Positions 1 through 18,758 are shown, counted from the stretch's first letter. The stretch is 64,000 nt of DNA from Candidatus Nomurabacteria bacterium (GCA_016199805.1 JACQGC010000004.1:106908-170907), one strand, 5' to 3'. The notes: generated from the letters alone by a model not told the origin. Translations and numbers: made by a program.

Positions 1-1196
1 CAGATTTGGTCACTGAAGGATGCCTCACCCTGATACCAAGAGTCTGGGTATGTACCCGCGTCCACTGATTTTGGCACAGCACAATATACAGTGTTGCTCA
101 AACTACCCCAGACACATTTCTCCGACAGTGTCCGTACTCCAATCGGGGTCGAGACTTTCGTGTCAGTATGGTAAATATTCAGGGATAAATTATCGTTACT
201 ATAAAGAATCAGTTTTCCATTTGGGCTGGCCAGCGTGGTGAGCCCGTTTATGCCGCTAAGTATATTGGTTAGACTCTTTGTGCTGGTATTCAAGGAATAT
301 ACATATCCGGGTATGCCGGATGCGGGTTTGGTTGTGAGATTAATTGTGCCGGGGTTTGGCCACTGTGATAACCATTCAGTAAAAGGTGAAATAAAAATCT
401 GTACTTTTTTACTGGTTGCCAGGTTCATCGTTGTACCTACCATATTGCCTACATTGTTGAATAAATAAAAAATACTTGAAGTGTCGGGCGATAAACTCAT
501 ATCTTTAATATTTTCCGGCAAGAAAGCCCCCTTGATTTCATTGTTTGACACTCGGTCGACACCCAGGAGTTCTTTGGGTAAGGTCGCGGCAAAAGTTTCT
601 ATTGTCCTCCCATCACTTTTCAAGTAACGCATGACTACAGATTGCCCCTTATTGCCAAAAACCGCCTCATAAATCTGAGGTATCACGGTTATGGAAAACT
701 TCTGCTCAAAAATTTTGTCCGCAAAAGTTTCATAAATATTTCCACTGGCTCTGTCCACATACCTCAAAATAGGAGCAAACTCTGTCAAAGGTTTTGTTGC
801 TTTCGGTGGAGTTTTTGATATTACTACTGGAGTTGTAGTGGCTCCATCCCCTGACAAGGGGAGGGTCGGGGTGGGGTTGGTTGCTGGTATTTCTTTTATC
901 CTTTCTTGACTAAACACTGCAAATCCCGCAACCGGCATAGTTGAAACCTTGATTAGTTTTGCGGTCGTTTCCGGAGTAGTACCTGGCTCATTATTGGGTA
1001 TTTCGACAGGAGGTATAGTAGTCGGTGGAGTTTTTGTTTTACTGCTTGCAAAAGGATTAAATTGCGAGAAAAAATTTGTACCCGTACTTTCCCCGCCTGG
1101 AGTGGTTGGGCCAGAATTAAAAACCAGAAAGCCAAAAATCGCGATAACGACGATGGCCAGAACTATTACTAAAAGTATAAAATTTCTTCGTGACAT
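1..1196 (-). CDS. Membrane-anchored hypothetical protein, 3' end beyond window edge. N-terminal TM helix then Thr/Pro-rich linker and large extracytoplasmic domain; first gene of the T4SS-like array
   Basis: Hand translation of the minus strand from ATG at 1196-1194 (MSRRNFILLVIVLAIVVIAIFGF...) runs without a stop to position 1. It is absent from the ORF track because it is truncated by the window edge. The plus-strand ORFs 20-241 and 235-468 are antisense artefacts. Confidence 0.5.
   Translation of the reverse strand, partial: MSRRNFILLVIVLAIVVIAIFGFLVFNSGPTTPGGESTGTNFFSQFNPFASSKTKTPPTTIPPVEIPNNEPGTTPETTAKLIKVSTMPVAGFAVFSQERIKEIPATNPTPTLPLSGDGATTTPVVISKTPPKATKPLTEFAPILRYVDRASGNIYETFADKIFEQKFSITVIPQIYEAVFGNKGQSVVMRYLKSDGRTIETFAATLPKELLGVDRVSNNEIKGAFLPENIKDMSLSPDTSSIFYLFNNVGNMVGTTMNLATSKKVQIFISPFTEWLSQWPNPGTINLTTKPASGIPGYVYSLNTSTKSLTNILSGINGLTTLASPNGKLILYSNDNLSLNIYHTDTKVSTPIGVRTLSEKCVWGSLSNTVYCAVPKSVDAGTYPDSWYQGEASFSDQI
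845..880. repeat. In-frame GC-rich hairpin (CCCCTGACAAGGGG, identical to the type A hairpin) within the edge ORF
   Basis: catcccctgacaaggggagggtcggggtggggttgg encodes NPTPTLPLSGDGA. Confidence 0.45.
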
Positions 1197-1212
1197 AAAA
1201 ATTAATTATATA

Positions 1213-2310
1213 TTAAGGACCAACATGCCAATGATTCCCCTCGTACCTAAATGAAATGCCATCTTTTGAGTACCTTTGGTTAAGAGCCGGAGCTTTTCCA
1301 CCGGTTATGTAGTTGGTCAGGGTAGAATTTACGCCGAGATCTATGGTCGGGCTACCAATTCCGTGGCTGGTGCTTCCGGTTTCTCCACCATGCAGCCAAA
1401 ATTCTGTTCCACCTTGTATGGACAATGCACAGGTGGGGCATTTTTGATGGATGGTGTTTAAGTATGCTGGGTCAAGACCGGCCGTTGATGTGCAACTTGT
1501 TTGTCCAACAGTTGTACACTGTGCATTATATACAGTTGCGCCGCTGTCTGCTAGGTTGGCAAGTGCGCCAGCTCTGGGTGCGTAGGGTTCATTTTTGTTA
1601 TAAGCAAGACCTCCATGGGTATATTGTAATTGACCATTAACTAATGTTCCTGTTTGAGGAATATTATCATTAACTGCCACATCCACTGTCACTGGCGCCA
1701 AACTGTTGAGCTCCGTGCCCAATATGTCCGGATTTATTTGGTATAGGAGTGTCCAGGCGCCAAGGGCCAAGAGCAGACCGAATATGGCGTGAGTTATCCT
1801 TTCCTTTCCTGCTTCTTTCCCGGAAATCAGTTCCGTGGTCATGTATTCTATCCCCCCTATCACAATCATCACTACAGCCAAGACAGCGCAAAGGCCGATG
1901 AATATTCTTATCATGACGTTTAAGTATCCGCCGATTTTGTTTGGGCCGGTAGGGTCAAAAGTTGTCAGTTTGCCGTTTTCATCACATCCGCCAACGCCAG
2001 GTGTAGCACAAGGCAGTGGCGCCAGGAGCACATAAGGCCCCGCCCAAGTGCCACCTTGGCTTGCACAATCAGATTGTATTGTTGGGCCGACATTGTCGCC
2101 TATGGTGCATGTCCCAATCGGGTCGACAAATGTTCCACTGGGGTTTGATACGCTCGCGCAGTCATTTTGCGCCTGCAGTTGAGTAATTCCTGTTTTAGTT
2201 TCACTGGTAATACAATGTTCCAGATTTGTTTCCGCATAAAGAGCGGACAAGGGGCTAAGTATTCCCACCAGTGTAATGATTATTAAAATGTAGTTTATGT
2301 ATTTTCGCAT
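1213..2310 (-). CDS. Secreted/membrane protein: signal peptide, Cys-rich repeat module, VirB2/TrbC-like double-TM hairpin, C-terminal LAS/M15-type metallopeptidase-like domain (putative cell-wall hydrolase)
   Basis: 365 aa. N-terminal hydrophobic leader. Two hydrophobic helices (IFIGLCAVLAVVMIVIGG ... FGLLLALGAWTLLY). C-terminal motifs S-x-H-x-x-G-x-x-x-D (STSHGIGSPTIDLG) and E-x-x-HWH (EGNHWHVGP) resemble VanY/M15 zinc ligands. Confidence 0.45.
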   Translation of the reverse strand: MRKYINYILIIITLVGILSPLSALYAETNLEHCITSETKTGITQLQAQNDCASVSNPSGTFVDPIGTCTIGDNVGPTIQSDCASQGGTWAGPYVLLAPLPCATPGVGGCDENGKLTTFDPTGPNKIGGYLNVMIRIFIGLCAVLAVVMIVIGGIEYMTTELISGKEAGKERITHAIFGLLLALGAWTLLYQINPDILGTELNSLAPVTVDVAVNDNIPQTGTLVNGQLQYTHGGLAYNKNEPYAPRAGALANLADSGATVYNAQCTTVGQTSCTSTAGLDPAYLNTIHQKCPTCALSIQGGTEFWLHGGETGSTSHGIGSPTIDLGVNSTLTNYITGGKAPALNQRYSKDGISFRYEGNHWHVGP

Positions 2311-2350
2311 TTTACTTTATGAACTTTATAACTTTCTACTTTATAACTAC
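2311..2350. promoter_or_regulatory. AACTTTATAA-word motif block immediately upstream of minus-strand gene start
   Basis: ttactttatgaactttataactttctactttataact. Confidence 0.35.
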
Positions 2351-3337
2351 TCAAAAGTTGACATTTATTTCTTTACTTACATTTTCAAAAAGCTTATAAG
2401 TGTTGCTGATTTGCAAGTCTATCTTAGATGTTCCGGAAACTCCGGGTTGCAGTTTGAGGGGCATTAAGTTTTGTTGAAAGCTCTGAATGACGACGGGGCT
2501 GTCATTTATAGACCAACTCCAAATGAGGGTCGGTATTCGTATGTCCCCCGGCGAGATAAAGTATGGTGCGGCCTGGATAGTTTCATCACCGGTCACTTTA
2601 TGTTCGTCTGAAATGGCTTGCTCCCACAAGGTTCCGAGCTGTAAATCATTTTTATAAAATACAATCTTGGGTTGATAGGTGCCTACATCTATACTTGCCT
2701 CAGATGAAGATGTTTGGTCAACCGTACTAGCCACCACATCTATGTTGTTTGAACCGTCCAGATAATCGTTGACATAAGTGAAAGAATTTTTGCCATAACC
2801 GGAACCATCCGGCACATTGGTGTAGTCTTGTTTCCACGTATAAACGAGGTTTGTGGGGTTGGTCGTCTGAGAACCGGACTTTATTTCCGGCATGGCTACC
2901 ACTTTTATCTCACTTTGGGGTGAAGGCAAGGCCTTGCCTTTGTAAAAAGGAGGGACATAAGAGTCATCCGCCTGCCAAAGCAATATCATAACCGAAGACT
3001 TGATTAACATCGTGGTGTTGATGTCGCCATCGGGTAATTTGGTGGTGGCGATGACTGTCGTCTGTGCTCCTGCGGCTGGAGCATTCAAAGAAAAGGATTT
3101 TTTGCCGATTCCCGACAATCCACTCTTGCCGTTTACGGACCAAGATATCAAAACACTGTTTAAGTTGTCCACATAGCTATTTAAAGTGATGGTCACAGTC
3201 TCGCCGGGCGCTGGATTTTGCGGGGCGATATTTACCAAGATGGTGTCGGGAGAAGAAGCCTTTGCTTCAAAGGGTAAAACAACACTTGTTCCCATAAGTG
3301 TGATAACCAAATACAACAATAAGAATCTCAGTTTCAT
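2351..3337 (-). CDS. Secreted hypothetical protein (signal peptide, beta-rich)
   Basis: 328 aa ORF; N-terminal MKLRFLLLYLVITLMGTSVVLPFEAKA signal-like leader; preceded by the AACTTTATAA-type motif. Confidence 0.55.
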   Translation of the reverse strand: MKLRFLLLYLVITLMGTSVVLPFEAKASSPDTILVNIAPQNPAPGETVTITLNSYVDNLNSVLISWSVNGKSGLSGIGKKSFSLNAPAAGAQTTVIATTKLPDGDINTTMLIKSSVMILLWQADDSYVPPFYKGKALPSPQSEIKVVAMPEIKSGSQTTNPTNLVYTWKQDYTNVPDGSGYGKNSFTYVNDYLDGSNNIDVVASTVDQTSSSEASIDVGTYQPKIVFYKNDLQLGTLWEQAISDEHKVTGDETIQAAPYFISPGDIRIPTLIWSWSINDSPVVIQSFQQNLMPLKLQPGVSGTSKIDLQISNTYKLFENVSKEINVNF

Positions 3338-3392
3338 GCTATATAATTATATCACAACTACTTTATAAACTTTAAAACTTTCAACTTTATAA
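3338..3392. promoter_or_regulatory. AACTTTATAA-word motif block
   Basis: actactttataaactttaaaactttcaactttataacta. Confidence 0.35.
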
Positions 3393-5249
3393 CTATTGCT
3401 TATTTTCCACCTGACGAGATTCCAGTTCTTGTTTGGCTTTTTTGTTTGAGAGTATCTGCGAAGGATCGGAGGTAATAATCTGATCTTCGGTATAGGAAGA
3501 AATAATTTTTATGGCCACATGTTTTGTGCCGGCAAAGAATATTCCCTCACCCACATTGGATTCCAAAAGCAAATACTTTTCTTCATCCGTCAGGTTGAAA
3601 GTCTTTTGCAAAAGGTCAATCGTGGTAGGAGATTGTTTCAAAAGAAGCTGGATGGAAGAGTTGGTAATAATCGGCACGCCATAAGGGGAATTCAAAAAGT
3701 CGGCAGCGTCTTGAGTAATGGTGGAAAGTCCCAGGTAATATTTTCGTCCTCTTTTGGCGATGGAATACAAGAATGAGGCGGTATCTTCGGATTTCATCAT
3801 CCACCAGGCTTCGTCCACTACCAAAAGGCGTTTTTTCAAATTCTTACGCACCGCGTTCCAAATGTAATGCATGATGATATACATGGCCACCGGTTTGAGT
3901 TCGTCTTCCATGTCGCGCACCGAGAACACCACGAATTTTTTATTAATATCCACGTTTGAAGGTCTGTTTAAAAACGTGGCCCAAGAACCCTTGGTATATT
4001 TTACCAGTCTTTGCACCACGGAATCACTGCCGTCCATCCCCGAGAGCACCATTTCAAAATCCGATAAAAGTGGAGGTTCGATATTTGCAAAATCGGATTC
4101 CGGAGTTATGTCTTTTATGGCGTAAGTTTCCGAAATGGCGCGGTCCACCATGGAATCTTCTTCCGGAGTCAGCCCCCCGAGCATCAGTCGGAAAAGCCCG
4201 ACTAGGTTTATGATATTTGAACGCAACACGTCTTCAGCGGTTTCATCTTCACGGGGCATCGGCAAATCAAAAGGATTGATATGGTGGTCGGAAGAAAGTG
4301 AAATATTGAAATATCTGCCACCGACGGCTTCGGCCAAAAATTCATACTCTCTTTCCGGGTCGATGACGATGACATCGGTGTCAAACATCAAGGAACGTAA
4401 TATTTCCAGTTTGGTAGCATAAGATTTACCGGAACCGGCCTTGGCGAAAGTCACCGAATTATAATTTTCCAGAGAAAATCTGTCGAAAATAACCAAGCTG
4501 GAATTGCTTCTGTTTACCCCATAGAGAATTCCTTTGTCGGAAGTGAGGTCGGAAGAAATGAACGGGAAGACACTGGACAGAGGCTCGGAATTTAATTTTT
4601 GGTGGATGTTTAGCAGGTCTGTCTCTATCGGAATAACGCTTTTGAAACCTTCTTCTTGCTGGAAAAGGGCTGGTTTGATATATATCAGCTTTGATTCCAA
4701 CATCGATTTTATTTCATTTTCAATTTTGAAAAGCTCGAGTTCATTGTCCGCATAAATGGTGACATATATACCCACATCAAACATCTTTTCCTGCGCTTGA
4801 ATCAGGTTGTCGCGCAAGCCTTCCAGGTCTTGGTAAGCGGTGTCGAGCATCGGGTCGCGCACCATGCCTTTACCTTCACGCACGGAAATCTGGCTCTGCA
4901 CTTCGGCGACTTTTTTCTGAAATTGTCGGAGCATCAGCGAAGTGTCAATCGGATGAACAAAAATTGAAATATCAAAAACCTTGTCCAGGTTGATAATCGG
5001 GGAAAACCAATTGTCGGTTAAAAATCTCGGATAAGATATTATAAAAAATGTGCGGGCAATTTTCTCGCCCAGATTTATGGACTTGGGTTCTATCTTCAGA
5101 GCCGATGGCGCGATGACATCTTCGAGCTCCAGGTTGGCGGACTCGTAAATATCTTCGGGTAAAATAGCCAAAGTAGAAGCCCGGGCCTGGCCCCCGGCCG
5201 ACGTTCCTTGTTTTCTAAATAAATTTTTTATGTTATCTAAAATACTCAT
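3393..5249 (-). CDS. VirB4/TrbE/TraC-family type IV secretion ATPase
   Basis: 618 aa; Walker A FAKAGSGKSYAT, Walker B LLVVDEAWWM; size and motif spacing typical of VirB4-like ATPases. Confidence 0.8.
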   Translation of the reverse strand: MSILDNIKNLFRKQGTSAGGQARASTLAILPEDIYESANLELEDVIAPSALKIEPKSINLGEKIARTFFIISYPRFLTDNWFSPIINLDKVFDISIFVHPIDTSLMLRQFQKKVAEVQSQISVREGKGMVRDPMLDTAYQDLEGLRDNLIQAQEKMFDVGIYVTIYADNELELFKIENEIKSMLESKLIYIKPALFQQEEGFKSVIPIETDLLNIHQKLNSEPLSSVFPFISSDLTSDKGILYGVNRSNSSLVIFDRFSLENYNSVTFAKAGSGKSYATKLEILRSLMFDTDVIVIDPEREYEFLAEAVGGRYFNISLSSDHHINPFDLPMPREDETAEDVLRSNIINLVGLFRLMLGGLTPEEDSMVDRAISETYAIKDITPESDFANIEPPLLSDFEMVLSGMDGSDSVVQRLVKYTKGSWATFLNRPSNVDINKKFVVFSVRDMEDELKPVAMYIIMHYIWNAVRKNLKKRLLVVDEAWWMMKSEDTASFLYSIAKRGRKYYLGLSTITQDAADFLNSPYGVPIITNSSIQLLLKQSPTTIDLLQKTFNLTDEEKYLLLESNVGEGIFFAGTKHVAIKIISSYTEDQIITSDPSQILSNKKAKQELESRQVENKQ

Positions 5250-5299
5250 TTTTGTTTTTACTTTCTACTTTATAAACTTTATAACTTTTTACTTGAAGA
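5250..5299. promoter_or_regulatory. AACTTTATAA-word motif block
   Basis: tactttctactttataaactttataactttttactt. Confidence 0.35.
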
Positions 5300-5953
5300 T
5301 TAAGCTTCCAGCTTAATTTTCCCTTCCAATTCCCCCGGATTGAAAACTTTATAAAATACCTCGACGACTTCTTCGGTGCCGAGTTGGGCGGAATTTATAC
5401 CGCAGCGGCCGAGGCCCTGCTGAATGACGGCGACTCTCTCTTCCAGTTGCGACCTCTTTTCTTCAAAATCCACTTCCTTGGCCACCCGGTTTTCTTCTTT
5501 ACTGCCACCCTTAAAGAATTTTCCGAATATCCCGCCAAATATTCCCGAATCTGATTTTAGAACAGTATGGGTATATGGCACAACCACAAAAAAACTTTTG
5601 GTCATAATGGCTACCGACTCGGTGAAATTTCTGATAAATTCTATATACTCTTTTGTCTGTAGTTTGAGTAAGGGTTCGGTCTGCACTTTTACTCTGTTTT
5701 CCAACAATAACAAATATGGTCTTATGTCCAACTTCCTGGACTGGATAGATACCTGCACCGAAAAATCGAGAGTGTTTAGGAAATTTTGAAATTGTAAAAT
5801 TGTCGCCTTTTGTTCATCGTCTGACTTTAGGGAAAGGTTCACCGAGTTGGCCAAGACGAGCGCCCGCAAGTCGCCGTCTTTTAGAACCACGATGCCGTCG
5901 CGTACTTCTTTGATGGGTATAAACTCTTGTGTTGCTTTTGCGTTTAAGGCCAT
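5300..5953 (-). CDS. Hypothetical protein within T4SS-like cluster
   Basis: 217 aa ORF, co-directional, preceded by AACTTTATAA motif. Confidence 0.5.
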   Translation of the reverse strand: MALNAKATQEFIPIKEVRDGIVVLKDGDLRALVLANSVNLSLKSDDEQKATILQFQNFLNTLDFSVQVSIQSRKLDIRPYLLLLENRVKVQTEPLLKLQTKEYIEFIRNFTESVAIMTKSFFVVVPYTHTVLKSDSGIFGGIFGKFFKGGSKEENRVAKEVDFEEKRSQLEERVAVIQQGLGRCGINSAQLGTEEVVEVFYKVFNPGELEGKIKLEA

Positions 5954-6053
5954 AGATGTCTAGTTAAAAGTTCATAAAGTTCTTAAAGTTATAAAGTTGG
6001 ATTAAAATTAATTTGCATTGTATTTACTTGACGGACTTTATAAACTTTCTACA
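5954..6053. promoter_or_regulatory. AACTTTATAA-word motif block (both orientations, 100 bp)
   Basis: aaagttcataaagttcttaaagttataaagtt ... ggactttataaactttctacattataact. Confidence 0.35.
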
Positions 6054-6482
6054 TTATAACTGATGTTCTTGATTTTTTCTTAAATCAAGAACATCGAGAC
6101 TCCAGGCCAAGTCCCGGAGCTTGCTCCCAGTCAACTTGTTCCCGTATACCGCCTGATCTTTGTTGTCAGTTGTGGCTTGTGGTTGGTTGTTCGCAGACGA
6201 GCTCTTTTTCTTTTTCCAAATATAAAGCTTATTTTGACTGAAATATTTGAACCCGGATTCCAGCATGTTGATAAACGGCTTATTGTTGGGACGGTAAAAT
6301 ATTAGCATACCGGAAAATCCGGCAATCAGTAAAATGGGGATAGCTGCAAAAAGTAGACCGAGCAATTTAAATAGTATGTAGCACAAACCCGCCCCTCCGG
6401 CCAAATAGGCAAATTCCCTAAAGGTGAAAGGGCCAAAAATTTTGTCTTCAATATCCAAAAATTGTGGAACTTTAAATTGCAT
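6054..6482 (-). CDS. Small two-TM membrane protein, PrgI/VirB3-like
   Basis: 142 aa; two adjacent hydrophobic helices (YLAGGAGLCYILFKLLGLLFAAIPILLIAGFSGMLIF) near the N-terminus; sits next to the VirB4-like gene as VirB3/PrgI usually does. Confidence 0.45.
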   Translation of the reverse strand: MQFKVPQFLDIEDKIFGPFTFREFAYLAGGAGLCYILFKLLGLLFAAIPILLIAGFSGMLIFYRPNNKPFINMLESGFKYFSQNKLYIWKKKKSSSANNQPQATTDNKDQAVYGNKLTGSKLRDLAWSLDVLDLRKNQEHQL

Positions 6483-6535
6483 GGGGATGAGTTATAAAGT
6501 TATAAAGTTCATAAAGTTGTAAAGTTAATGCAATA
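6483..6535. promoter_or_regulatory. AACTTTATAA-word motif block
   Basis: gagttataaagttataaagttcataaagttgtaaagtta. Confidence 0.35.
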
Positions 6536-6883
6536 CTAATCCAGAGTTTTAATAAGACCTGATAATAGCTTAGAAATTTCTAGAGTTAAATCATACATTT
6601 TCTTAAAATCTCGTTCTGTAATGTATTTTAACTCCAAACCTAAGTTTAACATAGATCTGACTTCTCCGGCAGACCCCTTGGATATAAATAGAAAGTTTTT
6701 AAGCTCTTTGTTTGTTCGCCTTTCAAAACCTTCAGCAATGTTGTTCATTATTGAAACTGAAGCTCTTTCTATTTGGTTTTTAAAACTATAGTCTTTACAG
6801 CTCTTAAATACTATATAAACATTAATCGTTAAATCTTTTCCTTTTTGCCAAGATATTATTTCCTCAAATTTTTCTATTCGCAT
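6536..6883 (-). CDS. Four-helix-bundle protein (TIGR02436-like; former 23S rRNA intervening-sequence protein family)
   Basis: 115 aa; NIAEGFERRTNKELKNFLFISKGSAGEVRSML motif is characteristic of this family. Confidence 0.7.
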   Translation of the reverse strand: MRIEKFEEIISWQKGKDLTINVYIVFKSCKDYSFKNQIERASVSIMNNIAEGFERRTNKELKNFLFISKGSAGEVRSMLNLGLELKYITERDFKKMYDLTLEISKLLSGLIKTLD

Positions 6884-6930
6884 TTTACTTGATGACTTTA
6901 TGAACTTTTTACTTTATAACTGGACCACTC
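6884..6930. promoter_or_regulatory. AACTTTATAA-word motif block
   Basis: tgactttatgaactttttactttataact. Confidence 0.35.
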
Positions 6931-7935
6931 CTACTCCGGCACCTCTCGGTAAGGATCAACCAAAGGTTTACTTGATGGAGGTGTGGGTGCTGTAATGTTT
7001 GGCAAGGAGTGGTCGGTTTTTACTACCGGCGATGGCACGGGAATAGACATTTTTTGGGCCAAGGCGGGATGAATTGTATTATTACCCTCTTGAGGGGTGG
7101 CTTTAGCCGGGGTGGATAGTTCCAATTTTTCCGGGACGGGCATAGGATTATTCCCCTCTTGAGGGGTGGTGCTTGCGCCGGGGTGGATAGACTTCTTCTC
7201 CGGAATAATTTCAATCCCATGTGTTTTCAGTACGTTTGCGTTACTTACTTTCTGCTCCTCGGTGTCATGTTTTTCTTCGGGTTCCCCCATCTTGGTTCTG
7301 ACTTCTTTTATAATTCTTTGATTAACGGAATTTACGATTGTGTAGGCTATCCCGTCCGGCACTTTCAAAATGCTCTTTATCGCATCCTCGAATTTATCGG
7401 TAGGAACAGTGCCCAAAATCACACTAGTGGTTGTCGTTTCCAGCAGCCCTATTTGTTCCACCGTAAGCCCGTTTTCACTCCCGATGTTATAGATGGTCTC
7501 ATAATAATGCGCTTCTTTGATGTAATTTTTTATTTCTTCCGGTAGTTTCGCGAAACGCTCATCGAGCTCTTCTTCGAAACTTGCCCCTGCATTTCCTTCG
7601 GACCTTATGTTTGCGTCAAACACATTTAGAAGCTCCGGACGGATAGTTTTTATTATCGACTCATTTATTTCGGCGAGAATATTATCCAAAAATTCTTTTT
7701 GCAGACCCAAATCCAATTCCAGATTTTTCTTATATTCATCCAAATGAATTATGCCGAGCAAAACCAGAGTCATTTCCGTGCCCAAGGTTTCTTGTTGAGC
7801 CTTGGTCAGGTCGTGTTTGGTGCTGATTTGCTGCAATGTCTCCAGCCATTTCATACTGGAAAATATTTCCTGCAATTTGGGTGTAAGTTTTGAGTAATAT
7901 AAAGCAACATTTTGTTGTAATTCTGTTTTATCCAT
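6931..7935 (-). CDS. Hypothetical protein with C-terminal Pro-rich tail containing a tandem ATPQEGNN repeat encoded by a palindromic DNA repeat
   Basis: 334 aa; two copies of the CCCCTCTTGAGGGGTGG...GGGGTGGATA element lie in-frame at 7084-7190. Confidence 0.55.
   Translation of the reverse strand: MDKTELQQNVALYYSKLTPKLQEIFSSMKWLETLQQISTKHDLTKAQQETLGTEMTLVLLGIIHLDEYKKNLELDLGLQKEFLDNILAEINESIIKTIRPELLNVFDANIRSEGNAGASFEEELDERFAKLPEEIKNYIKEAHYYETIYNIGSENGLTVEQIGLLETTTTSVILGTVPTDKFEDAIKSILKVPDGIAYTIVNSVNQRIIKEVRTKMGEPEEKHDTEEQKVSNANVLKTHGIEIIPEKKSIHPGASTTPQEGNNPMPVPEKLELSTPAKATPQEGNNTIHPALAQKMSIPVPSPVVKTDHSLPNITAPTPPSSKPLVDPYREVPE
7084..7119. repeat. Type D palindromic repeat CCCTCTTGAGGGGTGG...GGGGTGGATA (copy 1, in-frame in the 6931-7935 gene)
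   Basis: accctcttgaggggtggctttagccggggtggata. Confidence 0.55.
7153..7190. repeat. Type D palindromic repeat copy 2 (in-frame)
   Basis: cccctcttgaggggtggtgcttgcgccggggtggatag. Confidence 0.55.
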
Positions 7936-7963
7936 AAATTATCTGATATTTATTATCAATTCT

Positions 7964-10519
7964 TTAATGATGGTCTGGAGCATGCGCGCTAGCCGTCGGG
8001 CCGTGCGCTGCTCCATGTCCTCCACCCCCATCTCCCAATTTCACATCTATCTTCGCGTGTTTTAGCGAATCACTGATTGTCTGACCAAGGTCCTTGAATA
8101 TATTTCCTTGAGGAGAGCCAGCTTCAACTCCGGCTCCTTTCTTTAGTCCGGCCCTCATTCCAAGCGCTACCGCAGAAATGATGCCAATAGTTGCTTTTGC
8201 GCCCAATCCCTCTCTCTTGTCTGCCGTTAACCCAGGTATATTTCTTACATCGTAAGTTCCACTTGTTGTTCTGGACGCTATTCTTGTTCCCATTCCCACT
8301 TTTTGCTGTGCTTCTTCTTGAAGTTTTGTAAACCTTTCTTTCCCTATTGATTGGGTTAGATTTTTCAATACTTCATTAAATTCTTTATTTAATTTATCTT
8401 CAACCTGCTTTCTTCCTTGATCATTCAACTCGCCCGCTGCGTCAATACTGTTAGGATCTGTTCTCTTTGTTTCATTTATAACATCTTGACGTCTTTTTAC
8501 TTTGTAATCATTCTCACCTTTTGCGTTTATGATATTGCCATTTACGTCTTTCTCGATAAGAACATCTCTGTTTTTGGCATCATAACCTCTCTTGATGTCT
8601 GATTCTACCTCTGACCTCTTTTCTTTCACGAATGTCTTTTCTATCTTTTCTTGTTCTACTCCAGAGAGGAATTTATCTCCTACTCCTTCGAGTCCTGCTT
8701 TTTTCTTTACTTCATCTATTTCATGTCTTGCGTGGTCTATTTCTCCTGACCTAGATTGAGCAGCGTTAATTCTTCCTCCTATTGCATCTACTCCACTGAT
8801 TTTTACTCCAGGATTTTTAGCTTCATAAGCCTTTTTTGACCCCTCCCACGTAGGCTTGGCCCCGGTCTTTCCTCCACTCTCCCATTTATCTAGTTCCCTG
8901 TTGTGCTCAATCATCGCCTTTCCGTAATGTTTTGCTCCTTCTGTTCTTGAAGTCGCCGCGGCTCCTCGGGCGATTAGTGTTCTTCCAGCAAAAGCTGCAC
9001 CCAAAGCAGTTCCGCCAACAGCTAGACCACCCAATACTTTTGCGCCAGCAATCAAATCCTCGGTGTATTTTCCGGACCCCTCCTTGGCAAGTTTTGTCGC
9101 CTTAAGAAGAAGACTGATGATTACCGCGGCTGGAAGCAAGACGAGAATGATAGTTTCTATCGATCCCACATCGGCTCGGTTGGAAGTGACTGCGAGGTCG
9201 TTAAAAATATTTGACCTTATCAACATAAATATCAAATACAACATAAACATAAAAGCCGGAGCCATAAACGCGGCTCCGAGCAGGCGCTTCAGCCAGGCTT
9301 CCCATCCCCAACGGTCAATACCGCTTAGCTTGGGCAAACTTGAAGACATAAAAGCAAAAGGCGCGGCAATAATCAAAACCCAGAGTTCTACCAGACGTCC
9401 GAGGAAACTCATGCCTGACATAAAGAGCGCATAGGCGGCGAAGAGCATTATTAATCCCGATATAAAAATAATTCCTAAAATCATTGGAGTTGGGATTTCT
9501 TCCGGGGACGGGTACCAATAACCATAAATTGCCCTGGGTATAAAATATATTGGCGCAGCGACAATATTGGCGGCGCTTATCAATGTCGAGCTGGTTGTCG
9601 CCGGCACTACCTGTGTTTTATTTTTAAGCTTGTCAAAAAAACCTTGGGTTAAAAATTGGGATGGGTCAAAAGCGGAGACCATACCGCCAGAAATATCTTT
9701 CTGGTCATATTTTGTAGCGGGGACATATGGTCTAGGGGTTATTGTCCCGTCCGGATTTTTTGTGTCCACATTTAATTTATTGTAAAAAACCAAAGCCAGA
9801 GCATTGGAAGTATCAATAATTACTTCGGTGAAAAACATACTAAAATTTATCAGCAAGGCCATGATTATGACCTGCACGATTATTTTTTTGGAATCATGCC
9901 CTAAATCCAAAATAATTTGGATGGCGACATAAAGTAAAATCAAAATAAAGAAAATATTTGAAAGGTCCCGCACGATGCCCCAAGCGGCGGGGATAAAAGT
10001 AGACCCGGCAAACAAGGTACTGCTCAAGGTCATAGATATCAAAACATTGAATAGTTTTGCCGCGACGATAAGCAACAAAGATGGAACGCCATAAAAAACA
10101 AAGAAAGCTATTTTTTGTATACAACCTTCAATGCTACCAGTTCCAATAACGTCACATTTTTTAAGGTTGTCTACTAAAGCATTGGTCGATGTTGGTGTTG
10201 TAGTTGCGGTTCCATTTACATTGGTTGTGGTTGTGGTGCCATTCGCGTTAGTGGTGGGTGGGTTAGGGGTAACATTTCCATTTGCTGGGTTGCAAGTTTG
10301 ATCTATCACAGACTGAGGCTGTTTTCCTGATAGTCGTGCTCGACATTCTGCTTCTGTTTCAGCCCGCGCTTTTCCAGCCGAAACAAAAGTTCCGGCTAAA
10401 ACCATAAGGAACAAGAATCCCAGTACTAAAATTTTACTTTTAGTTTTTGGTTTTAATTTATTTTTATCCTTTGTCGTCATCATTATTGATTTAACTTTAC
10501 AAACTTTAAAACTTTTCAC
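7964..10519 (-). CDS. Polytopic membrane protein, TrbL/VirB6-like, with Thr-rich N-terminal region and charged C-terminal tail
   Basis: 851 aa; signal/TM at the N-terminus, Thr-rich low-complexity segment, at least 6 hydrophobic helices in the middle, long Lys/Glu-rich C-terminal domain. This architecture is typical of VirB6/TrbL homologues. Confidence 0.5.
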   Translation of the reverse strand: MKSFKVCKVKSIMMTTKDKNKLKPKTKSKILVLGFLFLMVLAGTFVSAGKARAETEAECRARLSGKQPQSVIDQTCNPANGNVTPNPPTTNANGTTTTTNVNGTATTTPTSTNALVDNLKKCDVIGTGSIEGCIQKIAFFVFYGVPSLLLIVAAKLFNVLISMTLSSTLFAGSTFIPAAWGIVRDLSNIFFILILLYVAIQIILDLGHDSKKIIVQVIIMALLINFSMFFTEVIIDTSNALALVFYNKLNVDTKNPDGTITPRPYVPATKYDQKDISGGMVSAFDPSQFLTQGFFDKLKNKTQVVPATTSSTLISAANIVAAPIYFIPRAIYGYWYPSPEEIPTPMILGIIFISGLIMLFAAYALFMSGMSFLGRLVELWVLIIAAPFAFMSSSLPKLSGIDRWGWEAWLKRLLGAAFMAPAFMFMLYLIFMLIRSNIFNDLAVTSNRADVGSIETIILVLLPAAVIISLLLKATKLAKEGSGKYTEDLIAGAKVLGGLAVGGTALGAAFAGRTLIARGAAATSRTEGAKHYGKAMIEHNRELDKWESGGKTGAKPTWEGSKKAYEAKNPGVKISGVDAIGGRINAAQSRSGEIDHARHEIDEVKKKAGLEGVGDKFLSGVEQEKIEKTFVKEKRSEVESDIKRGYDAKNRDVLIEKDVNGNIINAKGENDYKVKRRQDVINETKRTDPNSIDAAGELNDQGRKQVEDKLNKEFNEVLKNLTQSIGKERFTKLQEEAQQKVGMGTRIASRTTSGTYDVRNIPGLTADKREGLGAKATIGIISAVALGMRAGLKKGAGVEAGSPQGNIFKDLGQTISDSLKHAKIDVKLGDGGGGHGAAHGPTASAHAPDHH

Positions 10520-10535
10520 TTTATAACTAACCCCC
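10498..10535. promoter_or_regulatory. AACTTTATAA-word motif block
   Basis: ttaactttacaaactttaaaacttttcactttataact. Confidence 0.35.
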
Positions 10536-10675
10536 TCTATTTTAGCACTCTTTTTGTTTTTTTACCCTAATTTTCTGTGTATATGTATGCTTTTCGCTTG
10601 ACATTTGTGATCTATTTGCTATACTTTGTATACAAATGGCTTCGGCCTCGCCCCGCGCAAGCAGGGCAAAATAAT

Positions 10676-11068
10676 TCAGTCAAACAAGAGCGCCTTCAGG
10701 GCGCTCTTTAGTTGAGAGAATAATTTCTCATCAATCATTCCGATTTTTCTAGTTAATCTCCTAATATCGATAAGTCTTATTTGGGAAAGAATAGCACTGG
10801 CATCACGATTTTCTAATTTACCTAAGTAAAAATAATGTTTCCCTTTTTTTATTTTACCGGTCAATGCGATCGCTAAGAAAATTTCTCGATTGAAACCCTT
10901 AATGACAATTATCGGTCGGTCAAAATTCTTACCCGTGCCGTCTTGTTCATTTCCGACATTTACGCCCAAAGAGCACCACCAAACTTCTCTTTCATGGTAG
11001 AAGACATTTGGTTTTTGTTTATGGATTGTTTTTTTATCGCTATTCCATTTGTCAAAATCTTTTTGCAT
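10676..11068 (-). CDS. PemK/MazF-family endoribonuclease-like toxin (no adjacent antitoxin found)
   Basis: G-x-EQ-x-G-x(4)-RP-x-I-V then SQIRLIDIRRLTRKIGMIDEKLF matches the MazF/PemK pattern. The track ORF (to 11137) starts upstream inside the palindromic repeat; the internal Met at 11068 is the more likely start. Confidence 0.5.
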   Translation of the reverse strand: MQKDFDKWNSDKKTIHKQKPNVFYHEREVWWCSLGVNVGNEQDGTGKNFDRPIIVIKGFNREIFLAIALTGKIKKGKHYFYLGKLENRDASAILSQIRLIDIRRLTRKIGMIDEKLFSQLKSALKALLFD

Positions 11069-11084
11069 TGATTTTTTGTATTTA

Positions 11085-11129
11085 TTCCCCTCTTGAGGGG
11101 TGGCTTTTGTAACCAAAAGGCGGGGTGGA
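11085..11129. repeat. Type D palindromic repeat copy 3 (at the 5' end of the MazF-like ORF)
   Basis: cccctcttgaggggtggcttttgtaaccaaaaggcggggtggatg. Confidence 0.55.
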
Positions 11130-11144
11130 TGTATCAACTTTATT

Positions 11145-13058
11145 TTAATTTTGTACCCAGGTTATGTTGTTGCGTATGTTGGGCCCGCAGCTGGCTTCTG
11201 TGATATTGGTTGTTGTCGTGCCGTCGGGATAAGTGCAAGTGCCATATGGAGCCCATGTTCCTGCACCCACAGGAGTATTTGCGCAGTTGGCTTGGGTTGT
11301 ATTTTGAAGTGGGGTGCCATTGACGATGCAAGCACCGAGCGGGCCGGTAGTGGTGGTCACTGTCGGACTCCAGTTTCCGCCCAAGGTTGTGCATTCTGAT
11401 TGTTTGGTATTGTTTACTGGGCTGCCGCTTATGGTGCAAGTTCCAATCAGGTCAGTTACTCCAGTAACCGGCGGGGCCACAGTTGTAGCTGTTGGAGTTA
11501 TTGTAATTGGAAGAATTATAACTTTGGCCGGAAGAGAAGAATCTTGAATAGTTACTAGGGCATTTCCTGCAGCTACGCCAATGACAGTTATGGTGGAGCC
11601 CTGAGCATACACGGTTGCAAATTGCGGGTCTGTGGGGTTCCATGTTCCTGCTCCGCTGGTAGTTGCCGAACAAGCAGCTTGAGTAATATTTTGTGTTGTT
11701 CCAGCTCCGCCATTGTCACAATTTCCCAAAAGAATGTAGGGAGGAGTGCCGCCAGAAATGGTTATGTTGTTGACGGCATTGCCGGGAAAAACAGAGACAC
11801 TGGTTGGGCTGACAGACAAAGGACCGCCAGTGATTGTTGTATTTGTGCCAGCGCTGCCTCCGGTGGTATTTGTAACCAAGGTGTTTCCTTGATAACTCCA
11901 AGAGTCTGTGGAGGAACTGCTTCCATTTATGGCATTACCTAGGGCGTTCAAACCTTGATCTAAAAAGTGACTAACCAGAGTATTTAGAATGGCGCTCAAG
12001 CTGCCTTCCACCATGGAGCCTAGAGCGGTCTGGTCTATATTTGAACCCAAAGCCTTGAATACCTGGTTGGCTGCCACCGCGCCAGGGGTTGTGTTTACTA
12101 ATCCATTTGAACCATCAGCTTTTTTACATTCATTCTTTTTACTCCAGTCAGATTTTTCTGTTGCGAGGTCTCTCTGGTAATTTGCATTTACTTGAGCAAT
12201 ACAATCACTTACCACTCCAGGTGCACTTTTAGAACCAACTGGACCATAACAGGCGTCTATTCTAGCTGTGAGATTTGAATCCAGATTAGATTGAAAAGCT
12301 GGCCTGTTGAATTCATTGTATCCATTATTGTAATTTGGGTTTACGTCATTTGGGCAAATTTGCGGAGACAAGAAGCCCATACCCTGATTTAAGGTGGTGT
12401 TTATTTTTTGCGCGGCGTTTTGGGTTGTACCTTGGAGTTGGCGGGCGAGTTTATCTGTGGCGAGCATATCAAAACCCAAATAATTATTTTGCGGATATTG
12501 TGTGTTGACAAGGAATCCATTCCATCCGCCGGCGTTGAAATTGTTTCTGTAGTTTTGCGCCATTATCGGGCTCATCACTGCCGAGAGCGAATAGGCCGCA
12601 TTTGAATCGGCCGCTGCTTTGTATCTGTTTATTACGTTTAGGGCAAAATTTTGACCATAAGGGAATCTGTTTGGGTCGTAACCGAATTCACCGACAATAG
12701 TTTTAATTTCGGATTTGGCGATGTCGTGAAAGAAAGAATCGGAATTGGTCAGAAAGAGCGGAGAGCCGTGGAAGCCACTATTGATCCAACCGGTAATGCC
12801 CTTGGTCAGTTCTTGAAGTAATCTCTTTTCAATAACCATCACTACTTGCTTGGCTATAGCGATGAGCGCATTTACCACAACATTGCCAGTCTCTATGGTT
12901 TGTGGAACCCCAACACTTAGTCCAACTACTGATATAAGAGTTGGGTCTATCACTACCCACTGCGCTTGCGCCTGCTTGGGCCCAGAAAACAAAACAGCCG
13001 GAAGTATTATCAATATGAGCAACAAAGCTGAGATTAATTTTTTATTTTTTTCTTTCAT
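11145..13058 (-). CDS. Large secreted protein with C-terminal Cys/Thr-rich repeats (possible surface or pilus-tip/adhesin component of the T4SS-like system)
   Basis: 637 aa; signal peptide; three C-terminal repeats of G-x-C-(T/I)-x(8-12)-T-x(3-5)-C-x(5)-G-x-W, shared with the N-terminus of the 1213-2310 protein. Confidence 0.6.
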   Translation of the reverse strand: MKEKNKKLISALLLILIILPAVLFSGPKQAQAQWVVIDPTLISVVGLSVGVPQTIETGNVVVNALIAIAKQVVMVIEKRLLQELTKGITGWINSGFHGSPLFLTNSDSFFHDIAKSEIKTIVGEFGYDPNRFPYGQNFALNVINRYKAAADSNAAYSLSAVMSPIMAQNYRNNFNAGGWNGFLVNTQYPQNNYLGFDMLATDKLARQLQGTTQNAAQKINTTLNQGMGFLSPQICPNDVNPNYNNGYNEFNRPAFQSNLDSNLTARIDACYGPVGSKSAPGVVSDCIAQVNANYQRDLATEKSDWSKKNECKKADGSNGLVNTTPGAVAANQVFKALGSNIDQTALGSMVEGSLSAILNTLVSHFLDQGLNALGNAINGSSSSTDSWSYQGNTLVTNTTGGSAGTNTTITGGPLSVSPTSVSVFPGNAVNNITISGGTPPYILLGNCDNGGAGTTQNITQAACSATTSGAGTWNPTDPQFATVYAQGSTITVIGVAAGNALVTIQDSSLPAKVIILPITITPTATTVAPPVTGVTDLIGTCTISGSPVNNTKQSECTTLGGNWSPTVTTTTGPLGACIVNGTPLQNTTQANCANTPVGAGTWAPYGTCTYPDGTTTTNITEASCGPNIRNNITWVQN

Positions 13059-13123
13059 TGTTGTTTATATTATACCCGGTAGTAGAACTTTTATCAAAGT
13101 CTCACTACCGGGTTATACACCTT

Positions 13124-14002
13124 TTAGGGTTTCAATTTTTGGTTGATAACAGCGGCTAGGTTTTTTACATCTGATACCAAAGTGGTGGCGTTTTGATTAT
13201 ATTTAGTCATCCCCCCCAAGGCGACAATCGGGTCGGTATTATAAAGCTTGAGGTCATTTAAATTTTCTACAACTCTCTCAAAATCATTTAAAACATTTAA
13301 ATGGAGAGACGCGAGAGACGAAGGAACACTAATTTTTGCCATCCCATCTATAAAACCACTAATTTGTTTAATGTTTGGGTCGAGTAGAGCAAGCGCGCTT
13401 ATGTCTGGGTTGTTTTGGTCGGCCGAGAACTTTTGCAAAATGTCTAAAATAGTATATTTTGTTGGATTTTTTTTATAAATAGTAGCTAGGGTGTCGGCAT
13501 ATTTTTTTACAGTGGCATACGAATCATCCTTTAATATTTTGAGATCGGTTAATATGTAAACTTTTCTTACCGGAGTATTTTGAATTTGCTGTGCTAGTGT
13601 GTCTCCCAAGTTGCTTGCCGTAATCTCGTCCATTCCCCCGTTTTGGCTCAAGGTGGTGACAGTCGCCATCAGGTCTTGAGAGAATTTATCTGTTTGGGTC
13701 AGATTTTCCGGTCCTTTGGTCAAAGGCAGCCCTTGTTCGGTTTGATTTTGCGCCACTAATTTTTGGATAGTTACACTATCCGGTGTTCCCGGGGTGGTTT
13801 CTTTCTTTGTCGGGTCGAGCCCGTACAAGCTCTCTTCCCAGTCCGGTACTCCGTCCCCGTCGGTATCTTTATTTACCGCGTCTTGCAGAGTCATGGTGCT
13901 GTCGTAAGTAAGACCTTCTTTTTTAAACAGAGAATCAATCGGATTTTTAAACACAAATCCTATTTTTATCAAAAAAAGCACAACAAGAAACACTATCGCC
14001 AA
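13124..14002 (-). CDS. Membrane-anchored hypothetical protein with Ca-binding-like DTDGDGVPD motif
   Basis: 292 aa; N-terminal TM; thrombospondin-type-3-like Asp-rich loop. Confidence 0.5.
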   Translation of the reverse strand: MAIVFLVVLFLIKIGFVFKNPIDSLFKKEGLTYDSTMTLQDAVNKDTDGDGVPDWEESLYGLDPTKKETTPGTPDSVTIQKLVAQNQTEQGLPLTKGPENLTQTDKFSQDLMATVTTLSQNGGMDEITASNLGDTLAQQIQNTPVRKVYILTDLKILKDDSYATVKKYADTLATIYKKNPTKYTILDILQKFSADQNNPDISALALLDPNIKQISGFIDGMAKISVPSSLASLHLNVLNDFERVVENLNDLKLYNTDPIVALGGMTKYNQNATTLVSDVKNLAAVINQKLKP

Positions 14003-14090
14003 AGCGATTGATATTATCCTTTTGTGTTTTTGCCAGATATTTTTAATAATGGGTTAATTATAACAACAATATAAATGTAAAGCAAAAAAC

Positions 14091-14168
14091 AACCCCCTAA
14101 ATCCCCCTTATCAGGGGGACTCCTGAATTTTTCCTCCCCTGACAAGGGGAGGCTAGGAGGGGTTGTAT
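14091..14168. repeat. Type A GC-rich double-hairpin element (CCCCCTTATCAGGGGGA + CCTCCCCTGACAAGGGGAGG), overlapping the ksgA 3' end
   Basis: aaccccctaaatcccccttatcagggggactcctgaatttttcctcccctgacaaggggaggctaggaggggttg. Confidence 0.55.
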
Positions 14169-15013
14169 TCTTCTGCAAGCTTGAGCCAGTCTTCCAGGGT
14201 CAAATCTTCCGCTCTTTTGTCCTTCATTTCTTCTGGTAAGACAAATTTTTCGTTTTTTAGGGCTTTTAGATTGCCGGAAAGCTTTTTTCTCTTGTGCGCA
14301 AATCCGGTTTTTACTATTTCCCAGAATCTTTGTTCGAAACCCTCCCCTCCTTTCGGAGGAGGGGTGCCGAAGGCGGGGTGGTGGTTTAGTGAGGGGAGAA
14401 AATTCTTCCTCGAAATATTTTTTATCAAAATCACCGCCGAGTCCACTTTCGGGGCTGGAGAAAAATATCTGGCCGGTACCTTCATTATCATTTTTGGCTC
14501 GCCATAAGCTTTGACAGAAATGGAAAGTAAACTTTCTTTTCCTCCCCTCCTTTCACCCGAGGGGCCGGGGGTGGTGATTCTCTTTGCCACTTCATTTTGG
14601 ACCATGAGCACCATACGCTCCGGCTGGCGCTCGGAAGTCAAAAACTTTTTCAAAATTGCGCCGGTGATGTTGTAAGGAATATTGGCGATTATTTTGTATT
14701 TCTCTCCCCCTGCTAAGGGGGAGATTAAGAGGGGGTCAAAATCCAAAATATCTTCATTCAGTAATTTTAATTGCCCGGATAAAATTTCTTTTTCAAATTT
14801 GGTTTTTAAAAACCCGAAAAGTTCGTAATCTTTTTCTACAGCTATAAGCTGACAGCTACTAGCTAGAAGCTTTCTGGTGAGTGCGCCTTTGCCGGGGCCA
14901 ATTTCCAAAACTGTGTCGCCCGGTTTCAAATCTCCTGCTTCTACGATTTTTCGTAATGCCGGTTCAGATTTCAAAAAGTTTTGCCCGAGAGATTTTTTTG
15001 CTTTGTGTATCAC
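14153..15013 (-). CDS. rsmA: 16S rRNA (adenine1518/1519-N6)-dimethyltransferase RsmA/KsgA, carrying three in-frame GC-rich palindromic insertions
   Basis: SLGQNFL motif, Rossmann-fold SAM-binding region. Insert-encoded peptides are TPPPKGGEG, PGPSGERRGGK and LAGGEKY. Confidence 0.85.
   Translation of the reverse strand: MIHKAKKSLGQNFLKSEPALRKIVEAGDLKPGDTVLEIGPGKGALTRKLLASSCQLIAVEKDYELFGFLKTKFEKEILSGQLKLLNEDILDFDPLLISPLAGGEKYKIIANIPYNITGAILKKFLTSERQPERMVLMVQNEVAKRITTPGPSGERRGGKESLLSISVKAYGEPKMIMKVPARYFSPAPKVDSAVILIKNISRKNFLPSLNHHPAFGTPPPKGGEGFEQRFWEIVKTGFAHKRKKLSGNLKALKNEKFVLPEEMKDKRAEDLTLEDWLKLAEEYNPS
14338..14398. repeat. In-frame GC-rich palindromic insert within ksgA (1 of 3; others at 14541-14576 and 14701-14736)
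   Basis: ccctcccctcctttcggaggaggggtgccgaaggcggggtggtg within otherwise AT-rich coding sequence. Confidence 0.5.
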
Positions 15014-15016
15014 TTT

Positions 15017-18661: not shown

Positions 18662-18676
18662 AATGTAATACTAACA

Positions 18677-18754: not shown

Positions 18755-18758
18755 TTTT

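Follow-up and report, generated by a model that had tools for sequence, protein, structure and literature searches.

A chromosomal type IV secretion gene module beside the replication origin in Candidatus Nomurabacteria

Introduction

Does a cluster of type IV secretion system (T4SS) genes in Candidatus Nomurabacteria (class Paceibacteria, Patescibacteria) belong to an element that transfers DNA, or to a cellular machine put to another use? The genes in question form an array at positions 1-14002 of a 64-kb stretch of DNA (hereafter the window), in which 12 co-directional open reading frames (ORFs), all on the minus strand, are separated by intergenic gaps of 7-156 bp. An earlier note, made from the sequence alone, had listed the same 12 genes and read them as a non-conjugative apparatus for secretion, uptake or cell contact. 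The ORF calls agree with this list, except that ten of the genes constitute the T4SS module and two are unrelated inserts. The core of that reading also stands, as the locus is chromosomal and neither a type IV coupling protein (T4CP), a relaxase nor VirB11 was found in the approximately 74 kb searched; its subsidiary claims on promoters and an M15 peptidase are not supported, nor is the VirB8 likeness that it had suggested checking. We regard it as probable that the module is a chromosomal, vertically inherited, origin-proximal T4SS, derived from the mating-pair formation class FATA (MPF-FATA) and uncoupled from DNA-transfer functions.

In a survey of 3,035 Patescibacteria genomes, the VirB4 proteins of these bacteria formed one monophyletic clade within MPF-FATA (Quinonero-Coronel et al. 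2025, PMC12102498). According to the same survey, TrsD is the commonest associated component, PrgI/VirB3, VirB6 and VirB2-like pilins of family PF18895 are found near virB4, relaxases are almost absent, T4CP homologues are distant from virB4, and the Paceibacteria virB4 cluster adjoins dnaA, dnaN, rnpA, ksgA and rpmH (PMC12102498). In Southlakia epibionticum, the genes SEML1_0006-0019, without recognisable coupling or relaxase proteins, are essential for epibiotic growth (Wang et al. 2023, PMC10633639). The role of this system has been called "completely unknown"; either effector delivery or the uptake of nutrients and nucleic acids is being discussed (PMC11665869, PMC12857230).

Core components of the module

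The ten module genes follow one another in the order tm292, sec637, polytopic protein, p334, PrgI, TrsD, VirB4, sec328, pilin fusion and p453. Those with relatives in T4SS of other bacteria are the following.

3393-5249, minus strand: VirB4 ATPase, C-terminal P-loop part, 618 amino acids (aa); NF045971 and P-loop_TraG
5300-5953, minus strand: TrsD-like protein, 217 aa; N-terminus of the VirB4 model and TrsD model
6054-6482, minus strand: PrgI/VirB3-like small membrane protein, 142 aa; PF12666
7964-10519, minus strand: polytopic protein, 851 aa; transmembrane (TM) scan and weak NCBIfam matches
1213-2310, minus strand: pilin fusion, 365 aa; PF18895, signal peptide and two-helix hairpin

The 618-aa protein had been described as a VirB4-like ATPase with GSGKS and DEAW motifs, and this identity is confirmed by a match to NF045971 ("VirB4-like conjugal transfer ATPase, CD1110 family") of 368.7 bits against a cutoff of 325, spanning profile positions 182-734, with the Walker A motif GSGKS at nt 4422-4436 and the Walker B motif DEAW at nt 3804-3815. 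In Pfam, it matches P-loop_TraG (90 bits, 1.7e-25) and AAA_10. The 217-aa ORF matches positions 102-233 of NF045975 (E 4e-9), positions 1-74 of NF045971 and the TrsD/TraD model NF041427 (E 8.6e-5), all below whole-protein cutoffs, and to judge from these profiles its product is a detached, TrsD-like N-terminal domain of VirB4. Identity of this protein with VirB8, VirB5 or VirB9, which the earlier note had suggested checking, was ruled out by the same matches. The 142-aa ORF scores 34 bits against PrgI PF12666 (cutoff 27), in line with its first assignment as PrgI/VirB3-like.

The 851-aa protein comprises a signal/TM segment, a Cys/Thr-rich ectodomain, a TM region (residues 139-472) and a hydrophilic tail of about 370 aa (480-851). 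About 7-8 segments are counted by the TM scan, so that the polytopic part of its initial description as a TrbL/VirB6-like polytopic protein holds. The TrbL/VirB6 part was not recovered: no Pfam TrbL match was found in the protein or in 20 orthologues, and NCBIfam gives sub-threshold matches only, to the TM protein Mbov_0396 of an integrative and conjugative element (ICE; E 3e-4) and, in the wider family, to MMCAP2_0566 (5/21) and to CD3337/EF1877 (1.1e-6 among orthologues). The protein thus appears only weakly VirB6- or ICE-membrane-protein-like, and is a candidate for a functional VirB6 analogue that would form the channel.

Genomic context and inheritance

Proteins identical to the 365-aa and 292-aa products are deposited at NCBI as HY311_00940 and HY311_00990 of a Candidatus Nomurabacteria metagenome-assembled genome (MAG). 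Sequence past position 1 was read from a Logan contig (L001) bearing the identical 365-aa gene, over 10 kb. It contains the end of the 453-aa ORF, followed by jag (R3H), yidC, rnpA, dnaA, dnaN and genes for a class A penicillin-binding protein and a tRNA synthetase. The T4SS cluster therefore adjoins the replication origin, with dnaA only 2 kb from the ten-gene module. The opposite flank consists of ksgA, a UbiA-family gene and uvrD/pcrA. It was past position 1 that the earlier note had proposed looking for a VirD4, relaxase or oriT as the mark of an ordinary conjugative element, and jag-yidC-rnpA-dnaA-dnaN are found there instead. The absence of VirD4, relaxase and VirB11, first remarked on for 14 kb, extends further, since searches for relaxase, VirD4/TcpA and VirB11 found none in the 64-kb window and the 10 kb past position 1. 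Over the same range no oriT was found, and no Walker A motif is present in the unassigned large ORFs of the window.

Relatives were collected by scanning one genome per GTDB species, which yielded 562 VirB4 relatives. The best 80 of these, with VirB4 75-95% identical, all derive from Patescibacteria MAGs, mostly Nomurabacteria or Paceibacterota, and together with the window make up the 81 loci used here, many of them incomplete, in which every window protein was searched for by tblastn. Gene order in the ten-gene module is fixed across these approximately 80 species-level Paceibacteria genomes, with uvrD and ksgA usually preceding it. The presence of module genes in the 81 loci is as follows.

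VirB4 81, TrsD 79 (directly upstream of virB4), sec328 77, PrgI 76, pilin 72
p453 69, polytopic protein 62, p334 44, sec637 44, tm292 36

Median identity decreases from 80% for VirB4 to 62% for TrsD, 49% for PrgI and 27-41% for the envelope-exposed proteins. In the 24 loci, likewise picked by VirB4 similarity, that include both uvrD and ksgA, it is 78% for VirB4 versus 54% for UvrD and 47% for KsgA. Because gene order is fixed and VirB4 is better conserved than UvrD and KsgA, the module is, as far as these comparisons indicate, a vertically inherited and strongly constrained chromosomal machine rather than a mobile element or a relic.

A conjugative or mobilisable element (ICE) of the ordinary kind, its relaxase, T4CP and oriT located outside the examined region, would agree with the nearest curated models being conjugal-transfer families (CD1110, and Mbov_0395/0396/0397 of a Mycoplasma ICE), with the VirD4 homologues present elsewhere in many Patescibacteria genomes (PMC12102498), and with a tyrosine recombinase encoded at 32763-33740. 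This recombinase, the single one noted in the rest of the window, is XerC/D-like, however, and lies 19 kb off amid housekeeping genes. The module occupies the same chromosomal site, from ksgA/uvrD to jag-yidC-rnpA-dnaA, in many species, and its other genes diverge alongside VirB4 across the 80 relatives (27-62% median identity), a co-divergence that fits vertical descent and not recent transfer. Considering also that about 74 kb of sequence contain neither relaxase nor T4CP, and that relaxases occur in only 103 of the 3,035 Patescibacteria genomes surveyed (PMC12102498), we hold such an element to be very improbable.

Two ORFs of the array do not belong to the module.

6536-6883, minus strand: 23S rRNA-intervening-sequence-type four-helix-bundle protein, insert; PF05635, 3.8e-31
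10676-11137, minus strand: PemK/MazF-type toxin, insert; PF02452, 1e-10

With the 23S_rRNA_IVP gene present in 8/81 loci and the PemK/MazF gene in 4/81, both are sporadic inserts unrelated to secretion. No obvious antitoxin ORF is found next to the MazF/PemK gene. Foreign genes inside the array (MazF and the intervening-sequence protein), and a VirB4 split over two ORFs, might also betray the decaying remnant of an ancient integrated element without current function. Yet every ORF is intact, the VirB4 split is kept in 79/81 loci and equals the TrsD arrangement of pGO1 (PMC12102498), and VirB4 has diverged less than the housekeeping genes beside it; this explanation is disfavoured, and we give it hardly any credence.

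A pilin-like hairpin joined to exchangeable modules

The 365-aa fusion protein consists of a signal peptide, a Cys-rich N-terminal module, a VirB2-like hairpin (residues ~125-192) and a C-terminal domain (~205-365), here termed HWH. Of its initial description as a pilin-like double-TM protein fused to an M15-type hydrolase motif, the first half was borne out. The pilin part is supported by a match to T4SS_pilin PF18895 (27.1 bits, cutoff 26.6) and by an AlphaFold2 model in which the PF18895 region is a helical hairpin. M15 membership of the HWH domain was not supported: neither M15 nor any other Pfam family matched the C-terminal domain in 20 members at E values up to 10, a PDB profile search with this domain alone gave no match, and hhalign detected no relationship between the HWH family and VanY-type orthologues (probability 0.9%). 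Invariant residues H316-x7-D324 and E357-x2-H360-W-H362 are evident in the domain and recall the Zn-ligand motifs of M15 peptidases, H-x6-D and E-x-x-H or H-x-H. The H...D spacing is one residue longer than in the canonical H-x6-D, and the resemblance is one of pattern only. An exhaustive profile search with the domain yielded 1,329 representatives; the best 150 of these are all close family members with the domain at or near the C-terminus, and offer no bridge to a known family. On this evidence the HWH domain appears to be a family of its own.

Among orthologues at the same position (the pilin slot), PF18895 is found in 59/66, and the C-terminal modules are diverse: NlpC/P60 in 12, VanY in 7, Amidase_5 in 6, YkuD in 4, SLT, SLT_2 or SLT_3 in 4, CHAP in 3 and Peptidase_M15_4 in 1, with HWH-type C-termini in 14 of 76 pilin-slot ORFs. 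NlpC/P60 occupies the slot in loci L002 and L004, whose VirB4 proteins are 95% and 91% identical to that of the window, respectively; YkuD is found in L008 and L014, SLT_2 in L012 and VanY in L007. Module exchange at the pilin slot thus appears to be recent, with swaps even between species whose VirB4 proteins are 90-95% identical. Four loci (L010, L056, L062 and L066) have two tandem pilin-fusion genes at the slot, which recalls the pilin arrays of other Patescibacteria classes.

In Gram-positive systems, VirB1-type membrane-anchored hydrolases such as PrgK, TraG and CwlT are encoded after virB4. The pilin fusion is the positional equivalent of these enzymes, with the VirB2-like hairpin as anchor, and by analogy is probably their functional equivalent too. 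Because of this equivalence of position, the HWH domain is a candidate for a peptidoglycan-acting, metal-dependent enzyme. No description of this fusion or of module exchange was found in the literature searched. We tentatively raise the possibility, doubtful as it is, that the VirB2-like protein of Paceibacteria is not a pilus subunit but a conserved membrane- or machine-borne carrier of interchangeable peptidoglycan-acting modules. The target of the swapped modules may be the cell wall of the host rather than that of the symbiont itself.

A more conventional role for the hairpin would be in the assembly of surface fibres or adhesins only, with VirB4 extracting the VirB2-like protein for pilus or enzyme display and no substrate being translocated. 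In Gram-negative systems, VirB4 acts as the pilin dislocase, and the hairpin, conserved in 72/81 loci, has a structural likeness to an archaeal conjugative pilin. Reviews have also noted that pili might be produced (PMC12857230). However, about 100 aa N-terminal and about 170 aa C-terminal to the hairpin would not fit easily into a helical filament of the VirB2 type, and a candidate VirB6-like channel protein is conserved alongside the hairpin protein, so that fibre assembly as the sole function seems distinctly unlikely.

Further secreted and membrane-anchored proteins

The remaining module genes encode proteins without assigned family.

13124-14002, minus strand: tm292, first module gene, 292 aa (282 aa at NCBI); TM anchor and four-helix bundle
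11145-13058, minus strand: sec637, secreted, 637 aa; signal peptide, 12 Cys
6931-7935, minus strand: p334, 334 aa; no TM segment or signal peptide, family unknown, variable Pro-rich tail
2351-3337, minus strand: sec328, secreted, 328 aa; signal peptide, no Cys, family unknown
1-1196, minus strand: p453, last module gene, N-terminal 398 codons within the window; translation cut by the window start

Of two large secreted proteins described at first as Cys/Thr-rich, sec637 conforms to this description with its 12 Cys, and sec328, which has none, does not. The sec637 protein combines a conserved N-terminal domain with a variable, Cys/Thr-rich C-terminal region; conserved positions are W91, G98, W179, N191, C235 and C311. 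The C-termini of its orthologues bear Ig-like, SprB or T2SS-T3SS_pil_N modules. This variable C-terminus fits a surface adhesin, and sec637 is a candidate surface adhesin or tip component. A DUF4141 match was dismissed as spurious, as it concerns residues 17-40 (signal/TM) only and falls below the cutoff.

In tm292, the TM anchor is followed by a TSP3-type Ca-binding motif (DTDGDGVPDWEE) and an extracellular four-helix bundle. The earlier note had proposed comparing this protein with VirB8 folds by structure prediction; the resulting model is a TM-anchored four-helix bundle and not an NTF2 fold, and identity with VirB8 or VirB5 was rejected. Full-length p453 (453 aa, from L001) has a TM segment at residues 7-25, a Pro/Thr linker and a beta-rich ectodomain, and matches nothing in Pfam or PDB. 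The sec328 protein, of steady length (~320-350 aa) across 77/81 loci, has no match in Pfam, NCBIfam or PDB, and p334, found at its position in 44/81 loci with lengths of 130-440 aa, has no family match in Pfam or NCBIfam, orthologues included. A mixed Pfam scan of p334, p453 and sec328 orthologues gave just sporadic PG_binding_1 and PD40 matches; the one PD40 match, among 48 sequences, was not traced to a member. The 328-, 453-, 637- and 851-aa families likewise matched nothing when their profiles were searched against PDB.

Three T4SS proteins, namely the pilin fusion (27-100), sec637 (~445-637) and the polytopic protein (~55-135), share in their extracellular parts a short disulfide-type module, G-x-C-x10-14-C-x3-8-G-x-W, as read from the translations. 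Its recurrence suggests a shared binding or stabilising unit.

How the machine may work

From these components we infer how the module could assemble, open the cell wall and contact a host. The VirB4 ATPase, whose N-domain is a TrsD-like polypeptide of its own, would dock on the membrane via PrgI/VirB3 and power a channel made of the 851-aa polytopic protein. The VirB2-like hairpin protein, whose gene is the second one after virB4, would display an extracellular enzyme domain and so fill the VirB1-type role of PrgK, TraG and CwlT in opening peptidoglycan, while the lineage-specific 292-, 637-, 328- and 453-aa proteins would provide the extracellular and adhesive part. By analogy with the Saccharibacteria system, which is essential, the machine would most likely act at the site of host-cell contact and move macromolecules across it.

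The direction of this movement need not be outward. In an import device of the ComB or Ced kind, the VirB4 machine would draw in macromolecules of the host, such as DNA or RNA, as nutrients, without export. Such a device would agree with the lack of a relaxase and T4CP nearby, and it would suit a class devoid of nucleotide biosynthesis; the competence system of Southlakia is dispensable, and uptake through the T4SS has been proposed (PMC11665869). Precedents exist in archaeal Ced and in ComB of Helicobacter pylori (PMC9905601; as cited in PMC11665869), and the Patescibacteria VirB4 proteins are nested in MPF-FATA, a class to which the archaeal VirB4 homologues belong as well (PMC12102498). Against this, the module includes no ComEC-, Ced- or DNA-binding component, the sequence carries no sign of transport direction, and a wall-acting module and adhesin-like proteins suit export and import alike. 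Import as the sole activity is conceivable, but we consider it unlikely.

Several points also weigh against the favoured reading of a T4SS uncoupled from DNA transfer. Paceibacteria T4SS are known from genes alone. The VirB6 assignment of the 851-aa protein is built on sub-threshold matches, the C-terminal domain of the window's own pilin fusion is an enzyme by prediction only, and no VirB8-like protein is recognised in the module, tm292 being modelled as a four-helix bundle. The conservation of VirB4 is inflated by ascertainment, since the loci were picked by VirB4 similarity. Finally, the search covered about 74 kb, so that a T4CP or relaxase could sit on another part of the 214-kb contig or of the genome, and VirD4 homologues are far from virB4 in most Patescibacteria genomes (PMC12102498).

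Promoters, repeats and neighbouring genes

Scans for sigma-70 promoters and terminators covered positions 1-15200 and were compared with shuffled sequences. Sigma-70-like sites are not enriched (33 versus 29.6 +/- 4.5 expected) and terminator counts likewise show no excess over shuffles; with a sigma-70-like match in only 3 of 11 gaps, the layout of one promoter per gene proposed by the earlier note was not supported. Features noted in the intergenic regions are the following.

13069-13097, minus strand: best sigma-70-like promoter, TTGATA-17-TATAAAT class, 11/12 matches
2314-2342, minus strand: AAAGT pentamer array with a 7-9-nt period, immediately 5' of the start of the pilin fusion
3360-3388, 5260-5288, 5967-5998, 6495-6526, 6895-6915, 10493-10522 and 33856-33885: further AAAGT arrays

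At this promoter, a perfect inverted repeat of 9-11 bp, CCCGGTAGT...ACTACCGGG, brackets the -35 element and abuts TATAAT (window 13059-13123). The combined element, which looks like an operator, recurs in 2/81 loci (L004 11860-11930 and L033 1753-1821). In the window and in L033 it lies 5' of the 637-aa gene, in L004 5' of the 328-aa gene.

The pentamer arrays consist of a tandem 7-9-nt unit ending in AAAGT, are intergenic, occur in both orientations and often abut a start codon. AAAGT-N4-AAAGT occurs 11 times versus 0.40 +/- 0.75 expected, and 7 of the 8 AAAGT-type arrays of the window lie within 2314-10522, shuffles giving 0-2 arrays. The array at 10493-10522 overlaps the first 9 codons of the called 851-aa ORF, which suggests that the true start of the gene is probably the ATG at 10483. 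The exact motif is kept in the closest relative (L002) only; arrays of other relatives have other cores (TAGGC, AAGCT, AATTCGT) and also occur outside the T4SS region, with densities across loci of 0.058/kb inside T4SS regions versus 0.050/kb outside. A role of the arrays as a T4SS regulon mark was therefore rejected in favour of a feature of the lineage. In relatives, arrays sometimes form sense/antisense pairs with hairpin potential.

An interspersed GC-rich hairpin repeat, CCTCCCCTTGTCAGGGGAGG...AGGAGTCCCCCTGATAAGGGGGATTTAGGGGGTTGT, is found at 14003-14152 and 18662-18758. It is accompanied by short palindromes, CCCCTCTTGAGGGG, at 14704-14721, 56759-56776 and 11087-11100, and at 7084-7097 and 7153-7166, the latter two being GC-rich palindromes in the Pro-rich tail of p334. 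Some repeat copies are intragenic, encoding 'TPQEGN' in the p334 tail and in the dubious MazF N-terminus, and one lies in ksgA.

The remainder of the window is housekeeping in character (CCA enzyme, PNPase, RNase Y, ComM, Clp ATPase, H+-PPase, NusA and trigger factor). Between ksgA and uvrD, 15017-16609 encodes a 530-aa protein with 13 TM segments and a UbiA prenyltransferase domain, a sporadic insert seen in just 1 of 80 fetched related loci. Two adjacent paralogues of about 585 aa (25459-27210 and 27255-29027) are very rich in CxxC pairs, and both have a zinc-ribbon-like N-terminus (CxNCxK...CPxCR) and no Pfam match.

Comparison with known systems and significance

The cluster is a typical member of the already described Patescibacteria T4SS, and the kinship to such sets that the earlier note had seen is borne out by the repertoire and layout reported in PMC12102498. 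Like the described systems, the cluster encodes VirB4 and TrsD as two proteins, PrgI/VirB3, a polytopic protein that is possibly of VirB6 type, and a PF18895 pilin; it lacks relaxase and T4CP, and it lies on the chromosome near dnaA, dnaN, rnpA and ksgA, a layout abundant in Paceibacteria. Where Saccharimonadia and Microgenomatia have arrays of 2-11 pilin genes, the window has one pilin-domain gene, and unlike in described Patescibacteria T4SS, its product also bears an extracellular domain of enzyme type. For another four conserved proteins, secreted or anchored, Patescibacteria T4SS offer no named counterpart. Essentiality is known for the Saccharibacteria system only, not for the type found in the window.

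Best curated matches of the window proteins are to MPF-FATA systems (pCF10 prgH-I-J-K-L, pIP501 tra, pGO1 trs, C. difficile CTn2 CD1110 and Mycoplasma ICE Mbov_0395-0397). The window order of candidate channel protein, VirB3, (TrsD) VirB4 and putative anchored peptidoglycan hydrolase mirrors prgH-prgI-prgJ-prgK and, as in MPF-FATA conjugative systems, outer-membrane core components are absent. In contrast to these systems, the window has no relaxase, T4CP, oriT or PrgB-type adhesin, no NTF2-fold VirB8-like protein is recognised, the module is fixed on the chromosome and vertically inherited, and the anchor of the putative hydrolase is a VirB2-like hairpin.

Like PrgK, TraG of pIP501, CwlT and Orf14 of Tn916, the pilin fusion would place a membrane-anchored, extracellular peptidoglycan-acting module close downstream of virB4, here two genes away, past the 328-aa gene, and its orthologues bear the NlpC/P60, CHAP and SLT domains of VirB1-type hydrolases. 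It differs from these in that its HWH domain matches none of their families, in its two-helix, pilin-like anchor behind a Cys-rich ectodomain, and in the swapping of module type within the family between species with VirB4 90-95% identical. With ComB of H. pylori and Ced of Crenarchaeota, compared by VirB4 only, the module shares a VirB4-based machine without relaxase and a non-conjugative use, but unlike them it encodes no DNA-handling partner.

Few machines have been shown to be essential to the epibiotic life of Patescibacteria, and their T4SS is among them; the locus described here offers a clean, complete Paceibacteria example of the ten-gene conserved module, not a new kind of system. 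A gene annotated as "pilin" that would take the VirB1-type hydrolase role and exchanges its enzyme module among close relatives constitutes a testable lead. If the hairpin protein is indeed a carrier of such modules, this would explain the apparently "missing" VirB1 homologues at most Patescibacteria T4SS loci, and if the host wall is the target as well, the module would be a fast-evolving determinant of which hosts can be breached. The exchange of pilin-slot enzyme modules between close relatives points to specificity evolving at the cell-wall interface, possibly that of the host.

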